In this document: positions 10,818 to 11,109 of the stretch, piece after piece | How the letters are laid out: every line of letters begins with the position of its first letter | Position numbering within the stretch: position 1 is the stretch's first letter | Virus record (IMG/VR): IMGVR_UViG_2721755651_000007 | DNA from: a virus | Lineage: Duplodnaviria > Heunggongvirae > Uroviricota > Caudoviricetes | Direction: 5' to 3' (one strand) | Length of the DNA stretch: 64,000 nt | The notes under the pieces: generated by a model | What the model was told of the DNA's origin: nothing | Seen by the model: the letters and a program-made list of their open reading frames with translations, nothing else | Database searches by the model: none | Translations under genes and position numbers: made by a program

Positions 10818-11109
10818 CCAACCTCATCTATTTGATTAACTGTATGCCATCGTAGTGATGGCGTAACAGCTGCCTGCTTAAAATGTTTTGATAAAAAAAC
10901 ATTGACCTTAAATGTTCGTTTTTCTAAACTTCATTCATTCCCTCACCCCGCCCCACAGAATGCAGGGCAATACTTCGAGTTACCAGGCAGTGGTCAGGGG
11001 TTAAGTAGCCAGCCCGAGGCGTAAGAACATGACGGCAGGGTTCAACTTTAATAACTATGCAGCAGGTTTTTGTTCCGCTACCCCGGCGTTAAGGGGAAAT
11101 GAGGTCAAC

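Follow-up and report, generated by a model that had tools for sequence, protein, structure and literature searches.

The window, by which we mean the whole stretch of 64,000 nucleotides analysed here, is judged to be Escherichia coli O157-like DNA carrying two lambdoid prophages (A and B), because of the RNAs that Rfam recognises in it (DicF, sok, AgvB and STnc100) and because its best BLAST matches are genomes of E. coli O157:H7. The + strand is the 'leftward' early strand in both prophages, and in both of them the same order of elements is found along it: a repressor gene, a promoter, a leader ending in the short motif that is the subject of this work, and then small ORFs, dicF, dicB, ydfD and the exonuclease VIII gene (Table 1). 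The first-pass annotation, made from the letters of the window, had placed the motif at the head of the early-left operon in both prophages, and this is borne out by the repressor gene and the sigma-70-like promoter that precede each copy. The cryptic prophages of E. coli K-12 have the same arrangement, with dicA, the motif and ydfA following one another in Qin, and with racR, a promoter, a long leader, the motif, agataagATG opening a 44-aa ORF, ydaF and, further along, kilR, racC and recE in Rac. In the viable phages mEp460 and Tritos, the leaders of which differ, the motif-bearing operon extends to xis and int. The motif is always located between a repressor-controlled promoter and the first cistron, and is present in one copy per phage.

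Table 1. Features of the two early-left regions of the window (positions in the window; S1 and S2, stems within the motif; SD, Shine-Dalgarno sequence)
Feature	Position	Strand	Remarks
Prophage A immunity repressor, cI/LexA-S24 type, 212 aa	10179..10817	+	PHROG transcriptional repressor; UmuD-like C-terminal half
Prophage A early-left sigma-70-like promoter, TTGACC-17-TAAACT	10902..10930	+	
Long ('A-type') untranslated leader before copy A	10938..11071	+	Conserved non-coding block
Motif copy A	11072..11098	+	27 nt; sequence, folds, covariance model
Copy A stem S2	11081-11084 with 11093-11096		Loop 11085-11092
Copy A candidate stem S1	11077-11079 with 11085-11087		
Copy A SD-like UAAGGGGA	11090-11097	+	
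GAGG, SD actually positioned for ydfA	11101..11104	+	5-nt spacer to ATG at 11110
ydfA-like first cistron, DUF1391, 50 aa	11110..11262	+	
DicF sRNA and intrinsic terminator	12461..12512	+	Stem 12495-12510, then T-run; within prophage A early-left operon
Prophage B DicA-type repressor, 135 aa	57178..57585	+	Likened to K-12 dicA by position, length and orientation
Prophage B early-left sigma-70-like promoter, TTGACC-18-TAAATT	57684..57713	+	
Short ('B-type') leader	57720..57751	+	Begins ATCAAG; 5' hairpin ACACC-GCAC-GGTGT at 57726-57739
Motif copy B	57752..57777	+	26 nt; sequence, folds, covariance model
Copy B stem S2	57761-57763 with 57773-57775		
Copy B candidate stem S1	57757-57759 with 57764-57766		
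Copy B SD-like UAAGGGGA	57769-57776	+	
AGAGGA SD and GTG (57793), start of 118-aa ORF in relatives	57780..57795	+	
First annotated ORF of prophage B early-left operon, 99 aa	57849..58148	+	phrog_21318, function unknown

The 27-base motif, GTTCCGCTACC(C)CGGCGTTAAGGGGAA, occurs twice on the + strand of the window, where 0.00 such matches are expected by chance (100 shuffles). Copy A (GTTCCGCTACCCCGGCGTTAAGGGGAA) has one C more than copy B (GTTCCGCTACCCGGCGTTAAGGGGAA). The position originally reported for copy B was exact, while copy A had been placed at 11082-11108 and in fact lies 10 bases further left; the covariance-model match to it covers 11072-11097. When the covariance model was applied to the window, to K-12 Qin and Rac and to mEp460, Tritos, 640R1 and pPE4, exactly one copy per early region was found, with scores of 41.8-45.9 bits for these copies and of at most 11 bits for the next best match. 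The motif is real, non-random and biologically meaningful, and it belongs to known kinds of feature.

The motif is transcribed within a 5' untranslated region, as can be deduced from published work on K-12, where an RNase III cut at +813/814 yields a DicF species of 190 nt (PMC10448788). The +1 derived from this coordinate falls no more than 1 nt from a conserved ATCAA in K-12, which is the point at which similarity among the short leaders begins. The ydfABC-dicF transcript is given as 1,146 nt in the same paper (PMC10448788), which disagrees with the 1,002 nt that separate the inferred dicBp start from the end of the dicF terminator (K-12 Qin, L001 2502-3503); the +813/814 coordinate is itself consistent with the 1,002-nt numbering. 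Two kinds of leader precede the motif, a long one of about 135 nt (copy A, Rac and phage pPE4) and a short one of about 32 nt (copy B and Qin). As they have their first bases (ATCAAGAC...) and their last block in common, the short leader seems to have arisen from the long one by deletion. Among relatives of copy A, conservation begins a few bases 3' of the prophage A promoter, and the long-leader block occurs behind at least 12 different promoter/operator types.

Two further observations concern the long leader. Its 5' part of about 80 nt (GGACAATACTTCGAGTTAYCC ... CTAAGTAGCYARCCYGAGGCRTAMGAACAT; window 10966-11040) is also found directly behind the sigma-70-type early promoter in T7/T3-like phages of Klebsiella, Citrobacter, Salmonella, Enterobacter, Serratia and Yersinia, for instance in Klebsiella phage vB_Kpn_K12P1.1 (L296 2440-2575), and thus constitutes a widely shared 'early-promoter leader' block that is distinct from the 27-mer. 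The first 30 nt or so (10938-10965, + strand) are C-rich and G-poor, with a GC skew down to -0.79, and resemble a Rho-utilisation site.

The leader is non-coding, with no open frame on the + strand in any of 31 variants (31/31) and no codon (three-base) periodicity in its variable columns. The motif is thus not a part of a longer coding sequence shared among relatives, a possibility that the first-pass annotation had itself raised against its proposal, and a coding remnant can be rejected on the same two grounds and on the one-base indel between the two copies, which shifts the frame. We consider it firmly established that in N-less lambdoid prophages of the Qin/Rac type the early-left leader RNA ends in the motif as its conserved last block.

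It is equally firmly established that the motif is a mosaic joint at which leaders and first genes are swapped, since 26 combinations of leader and gene are found and similarity ends abruptly on both sides. In the approximately 380 loci that were fetched from viral and genome collections, the motif stands between leaders of at least 8 classes and first genes of about 10 unrelated kinds, including ydfA/DUF1391, ydaG, the 118-aa ORF, several ORFans and one with a weak UBA-like match, and ydfA occurs behind all 8 leader classes. Where relatives match copy A in BLAST, the alignment sets in exactly at the first motif base; with copy B it either stops at the final base or sets in at the initial one. 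Pairwise alignment reveals no extended similarity around the two copies, in agreement with the initial remark that their flanking sequences differ. Non-homologous modules thus meet at the motif in several combinations, the breakpoints falling at its edges, and of the readings that had been offered from the outset, that of a recombination boundary is the one that is strongly supported. Polymorphisms within the motif (T, C or G at position 8, and the length of the C-run) accompany the upstream or the downstream flank, depending on the recombinant, which indicates that exchange points lie on both sides of the motif block and probably inside it too. A motif that simply travels with ydfA is rejected, because the DUF1391 genes of Pantoea phages and of phage HeidiAbel lack it.

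The modular model of Susskind and Botstein reportedly includes conserved 'boundary' or linker sequences at the junctions between lambdoid modules, and such boundary sequences are said to have been described for HK620 and for HK97-type genomes. The motif resembles them in being a short conserved stretch at a gene boundary, with interchangeable unrelated modules on either side and with exchange mapping to the stretch itself. It differs from them in also being constrained at the RNA level, by a compensated stem and a Shine-Dalgarno sequence. In the literature searched, including that on the dicB operon, ydfA, ydaG, kilR and antitermination in N-less lambdoid phages, we found neither a description of the motif sequence or of its location at the end of the early-left leader of Qin/Rac-type prophages, nor any experiment on it.

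How strongly the motif is conserved depends on how the loci are collected. The first data sets were retrieved with patterns that fix most of the motif bases, so that its invariance in them is uninformative, and later loci were retrieved through sequences outside the motif to avoid this ascertainment bias. Long leaders that were found via their upstream block contain the motif pattern in 175 of 188 cases and a form with 1-4 changes in the other 13, and short leaders found via their 5' hairpin contain the motif in 127 of 127 cases, with GCGTTAAGGGG invariant; the adjacent spacer and the variable hairpin just upstream are much less conserved. The search of related prophages that the first-pass annotation had recommended thus recovered the motif in K-12 Qin and Rac, in mEp460 and Tritos and in many additional loci. 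In a cross-species scan its near-exact form was restricted to Escherichia and Shigella, with matches in other phyla at about the number expected by chance, and it is also present in one phage deposited as an Actinobacillus phage. As the near-invariant motif is found mainly in Escherichia and Shigella, recent common descent may explain part of this invariance. In a divergent lineage (L286, L389 and L390) the genomic architecture is unchanged and the element is altered, yet recognisable.

At the RNA level, most minimum-energy folds contain a stem of CCC(C) with GGG(G) that closes a loop, GGCGUUAA(G), of 8-9 nt. The fold prediction that had been advised as a check gave a divided answer, since this short GC stem, of only 3-4 bp, indeed recurs, although the fold energies are no better than those of shuffled sequence (z = +0.3 to -1.1). 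Comparison between variants is more informative about the pairing itself: 96.5% of cells are paired, against 87.7 +/- 2.1% in shuffles (0/500), and changes in the 5' arm are C>U, compensated or in the loop. Compensatory forms of the stem include CCC:GGG, CCG:CGG (variant 1) and, at the same place in distant relatives, GCCG:CGGC and GCCAG:CUGGC. These comparisons, in which covariation comes from few lineages, go part of the way towards showing that the motif forms a short GC stem-loop retained by compensatory changes.

The freely varying positions are precisely those that a second mini-stem (S1, GCY with RGC) would enclose, and together with the stem just described (S2, CCC:GGG) this mini-stem would create an H-type pseudoknot. 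In this model pairing reaches 93.9%, against 88.3 +/- 1.1% in shuffles (0/500), for 19 variants from which the stems were themselves derived, and 3 pairs have two-sided changes, against 1.0 +/- 0.8 (7/500), in the same 19 variants that had defined the 3-bp stems. The putative pseudoknot is unproven, given the small number of variants, the derivation of the model from them and the loss of S1 in L389/L390. Mini-pseudoknots like preQ1-I or guanidine-III are rejected, as no Rfam match is obtained even at E <= 10; over the motif Rfam gives no match at the gathering threshold, nor at E <= 10 over 10820-11300.

Additional structure has been looked for in both leaders. The 5' hairpin of the short leader has a stem that differs by compensation (ACACC/GGTGT, ACAACGA/TCGTTGT, GCAC/GTGC and ACAGC/GCTGT; window 57726-57739 and L012, L080 and L124) and a loop that is not conserved, and it may represent a 5'-terminal structural element of the transcript. 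The motif is complementary to the 5' part of the long leader at 93.8%, against 41-61% when the two are slid along each other. A long-range fold between them is unproven: two-sided changes are absent from it, the alifold consensus differed between alignments, and a perfect 9-mer complement to the motif is found only in Rac-type leaders (P ~0.018) and is absent from copy A of the window. Such a fold cannot apply to the short leader, where the partner sequences are missing. Internal direct repeats of the motif are no more frequent in the long leader than chance predicts (P ~0.2), and pairing of the motif with the small RNAs of the window (DicF, STnc100, AgvB and sok) is no better than that of shuffled sequence.

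The first-pass annotation had also suggested a conserved RBS region, and part of this suggestion stands. Of its three proposals, this one and the recombination boundary were essentially correct. The 3' end of the motif, UUAAGGGG, pairs with the anti-Shine-Dalgarno sequence of 16S rRNA, GAUCACCUCCUUA, at -8.3 to -10.5 kcal/mol (4 contexts), and the run UAAGGGGA is the only Shine-Dalgarno sequence for six first-gene families, including K-12 Rac ydaG, in which the start codon follows GGGGA after 6-11 nt. What does not stand is the generality of this role. The first ORFs behind both window copies have Shine-Dalgarno sequences of their own, GAGG in the ydfA family and AGAGGA in the family of the 118-aa ORF, 12 and 16 nt 3' of the motif; variant 1 has a weakened SD-like run (AAGCGG) and still has the stem; and in the L286/L389 lineage the start codon lies 50-60 nt from the stem-loop, the loop of which has a different sequence. 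Since the stem is in all these cases separated from a working Shine-Dalgarno sequence, occlusion of the latter cannot be the whole conserved function. The ATGAGG extension that follows the motif at copy A is seen again in several contexts.

Some minor features of these gene starts should be mentioned. In contexts of the ydfA type, an ATG directly after the motif (GGGGAA-ATG) opens a putative ORF of about 29 codons (window 11099-11188, + strand) that overlaps ydfA in another frame and has poor Shine-Dalgarno spacing. In relatives, the 118-aa ORF starts at a GTG 16 nt 3' of the motif (window 57793). Owing to a one-base difference (GGCGAGTC vs GGCGAAGTC), this GTG and the ATG at 57849 are in different frames in the window, so that in prophage B the N-terminal extension has been lost or the gene is frameshifted.

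The most likely interpretation of these observations is that stem-loop and Shine-Dalgarno sequence together constitute a translation-initiation (possibly stability) module, the conservation of which would supply the approximately 26 bp of homology used in recombination. The motif closes the 5' untranslated leader RNA of the early-left transcript (lambda PL-like, starting at dicBp in Qin) and is nearly invariant, while leaders upstream and first genes downstream exchange freely. Its 3' arm and flank provide the sole Shine-Dalgarno sequence for many alternative first genes, and, by covering this sequence in part, the stem-loop would determine how well the first cistron is translated, and possibly how stable it is, in an operon with toxic genes (dicF/dicB and kilR). 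The same motif would be the only homology among otherwise unrelated modules, and hence the place where homologous recombination, driven by the RecA of the host or by RecET-type phage enzymes whose genes lie in the operon itself, would resolve; this would give rise to the abrupt boundaries that were first noted. For this reading as a whole, a structured end-of-leader and translation-initiation module that also serves as a crossover point, we estimate a probability of about 0.5, the odds being only about even because of the evidence against a purely SD-centred function. Hairpins that overlap Shine-Dalgarno sequences and act as translational operators are known, such as the MS2 replicase operator and the leader pseudoknot of T4 gene 32. 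Like these, the motif is a small structured element located 5' of or overlapping the ribosome-binding site of a first cistron, in which the SD-like run is one arm of the stem. Unlike these, it has a very short stem and no known binding protein or ligand, and some of its lineages retain the stem even though the Shine-Dalgarno role has been lost or the start codon is distant.

Among the competing explanations, the one that survives best, while still being unlikely, is that the motif has no function of its own and is a remnant of shared ancestry, homogenised by recombination between close E. coli prophages, in other words a passive scar or hitch-hiker. The largely Escherichia/Shigella distribution of the near-invariant form, the shortness of the element and its unremarkable fold energies are all as such a remnant would have them, and the search pattern itself accounts for much of the invariance seen in the first data sets. 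However, in the samples collected without this bias the motif is far better conserved than the neighbouring spacer and variable hairpin, its substitutions are patterned (the loop varies, and the arms change by C>U or with compensation), and it persists in at least 26 independent combinations of modules.

A quite unlikely alternative is that the leader, including the stem-loop, is a cis-acting antitermination (or anti-Rho) RNA that modifies RNA polymerase without the help of a protein, like HK022 putL, in phages that lack N. The polymerase would thereby be enabled to pass the dicF terminator and to continue to recE, xis and int. HK022 putL is an RNA of about 70 nt with two stem-loops just downstream of PL (PMC9378689), and it has been proposed that N-less lambdoids may use put-like RNAs (PMC12315714). 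The leader studied here is likewise found in N-less lambdoid phages of the Qin/Rac type, starts essentially at the start of PL-type transcription and would act in cis by its position, and its short form is made up of two stem-loops that lie within about 58 nt of the start and have both been retained by compensatory changes. In addition, the intrinsic terminator of the operon (dicF) is read through in vivo, and the stem-loop is conserved even where no ribosome-binding site adjoins it. Against these points, HK022 putL (taken from NC_002166) has no sequence similarity to the motif leader, the covariance model detects no putR-like second copy in the rightward operon, and the folds give no thermodynamic signal. 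The distance from promoter to motif varies from about 33 to about 135 nt, the long leader placing the motif about 135 nt from the transcript start; within the E. coli clade it is instead the spacing to the start codon that is constrained. The stems of put RNAs are also much longer than those of the motif leader. Since the phages lack N and the dicF intrinsic terminator is read through in vivo, this protein-independent role is nevertheless, in our opinion, the most interesting reading that remains. Its fullest version, in which the N-less Qin/Rac-type leader would be a protein-independent RNA conferring resistance to termination (or to Rho) and would represent a second, sequence-unrelated put-like class, with its upstream half belonging to a wider family of early-promoter leaders that is also present behind the host-RNAP promoters of T7/T3-like phages, is likewise quite unlikely.

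It is rather improbable that the conserved property is mRNA processing or stability, with cleavage in an A/U-rich tract 5' of the motif and protection of the mRNA by a stem-loop near the new 5' end, in the manner of the 5' hairpin of ompA. An A/U-rich tract does directly precede GUUCC in every leader class (TTTTT, AAACA, TTTTA, AAAAC or GTTA), RNase E and RNase III affect the levels of ydfA mRNA (PMC10448788), and conservation of the stem in distant relatives does not depend on the ribosome-binding site. However, no 5' end has been mapped at the motif and the stem is weak. The A/U-rich leader tracts also fit the RNase E consensus poorly.

A binding site in DNA for a host or phage protein, just 3' of the early-left promoter, is very improbable: the strict conservation of primary sequence (about 22 of 27 positions) would be in keeping with such a site, but the immunity repressors differ between carriers of the motif, which therefore is not an operator, no known consensus (LexA, IHF, CRP or correctly oriented ops) was recognised by eye, and compensatory and G.U-compatible substitutions point to RNA and not to DNA. 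The ops element of RfaH, which was considered by eye on the opposite strand, is rejected for its wrong orientation and because position 8 (T, C or G) alters the base that matches the conserved A of the ops core. The Rho terminator t_rac is likewise rejected, being a different element located inside racR on PRM transcripts.

Finally, the nut-like RNA element that the first-pass annotation had listed among its options, that is a lambda-type nutL in which a boxA-like linear element and a boxB-like hairpin load an N-type antiterminator together with host Nus factors, is barely credible, for while the motif does lie in a PL-type leader, at the correct position 3' of the promoter, and does have a single-stranded conserved stretch at its 5' side (GUUCCGC), after which comes a short GC stem whose loop is conserved, neither leader contains a boxA consensus (YGCTCTT(T)A) with at most 1 mismatch (window-wide 28 matches against 21.6 +/- 4.6, equal to chance), the 3-4-bp stem and 8-9-nt loop differ from the boxB geometry of an approximately 5-bp stem with a purine-rich GNRA-like pentaloop, there is but one copy per early region with no nutR-type partner in the rightward operon (pattern searches and covariance model), and neither operon has a plausible N-like or Arg-rich ORF. 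The search for an N-like antiterminator that had been advised returned first genes that encode DUF1391 proteins, a protein with a weak UBA-like match or ORFans, none of them N-like, and no N is annotated in mEp460 or Tritos.

The genes behind the motif are of physiological importance. DicF, DicB and KilR are encoded by prophages, inhibit division of the host cell and render Rho and NusG essential in K-12, and it is the operons encoding them that are headed by the motif. It is present in both classic cryptic prophages of K-12, and most complete E. coli genomes have matches, often several each, to the regions in which it lies. Control of the translation, mRNA stability or read-through of these toxic operons by the stem-loop, if it exists, would amount to an unrecognised layer of prophage silencing. 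The motif also offers a concrete example of a linker, of about 26 bp, at which lambdoid phages exchange their immunity and promoter modules and their early genes, and such exchange bears on the origin of new prophage combinations in EHEC.

Several other features of the window were recorded. Prophage B contains a degraded copy of DicF at 59415-59464 (+ strand), which at 43.5 bits scores below the Rfam gathering score of 48, and a terminator scan of its operon (57580-62700) found nothing at the 3' end of this copy; the DicF of prophage A, at 12461-12512, is intact. Two sok antitoxin RNAs of hok/sok-type loci (Rfam) are located at 3764-3938 and 52149-52298 (both - strand), one in the rightward arm of each prophage. 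AgvB (an anti-GcvB sRNA, + strand), STnc100 and two tRNA genes (- strand) are clustered at 46911-47522, between the two early regions, and an Rfam match to the ALIL pseudoknot lies at 6415-6531 (- strand), a few kb from the replication-gene region of prophage A. In the latter prophage (13153-14930, + strand), the ORF in the exonuclease VIII position has only 414 aa, against 823 aa in prophage B, and it overlaps an ORF of 183 aa that looks like an integrase fragment; prophage A thus seems, like Qin, to have lost part of its left side.
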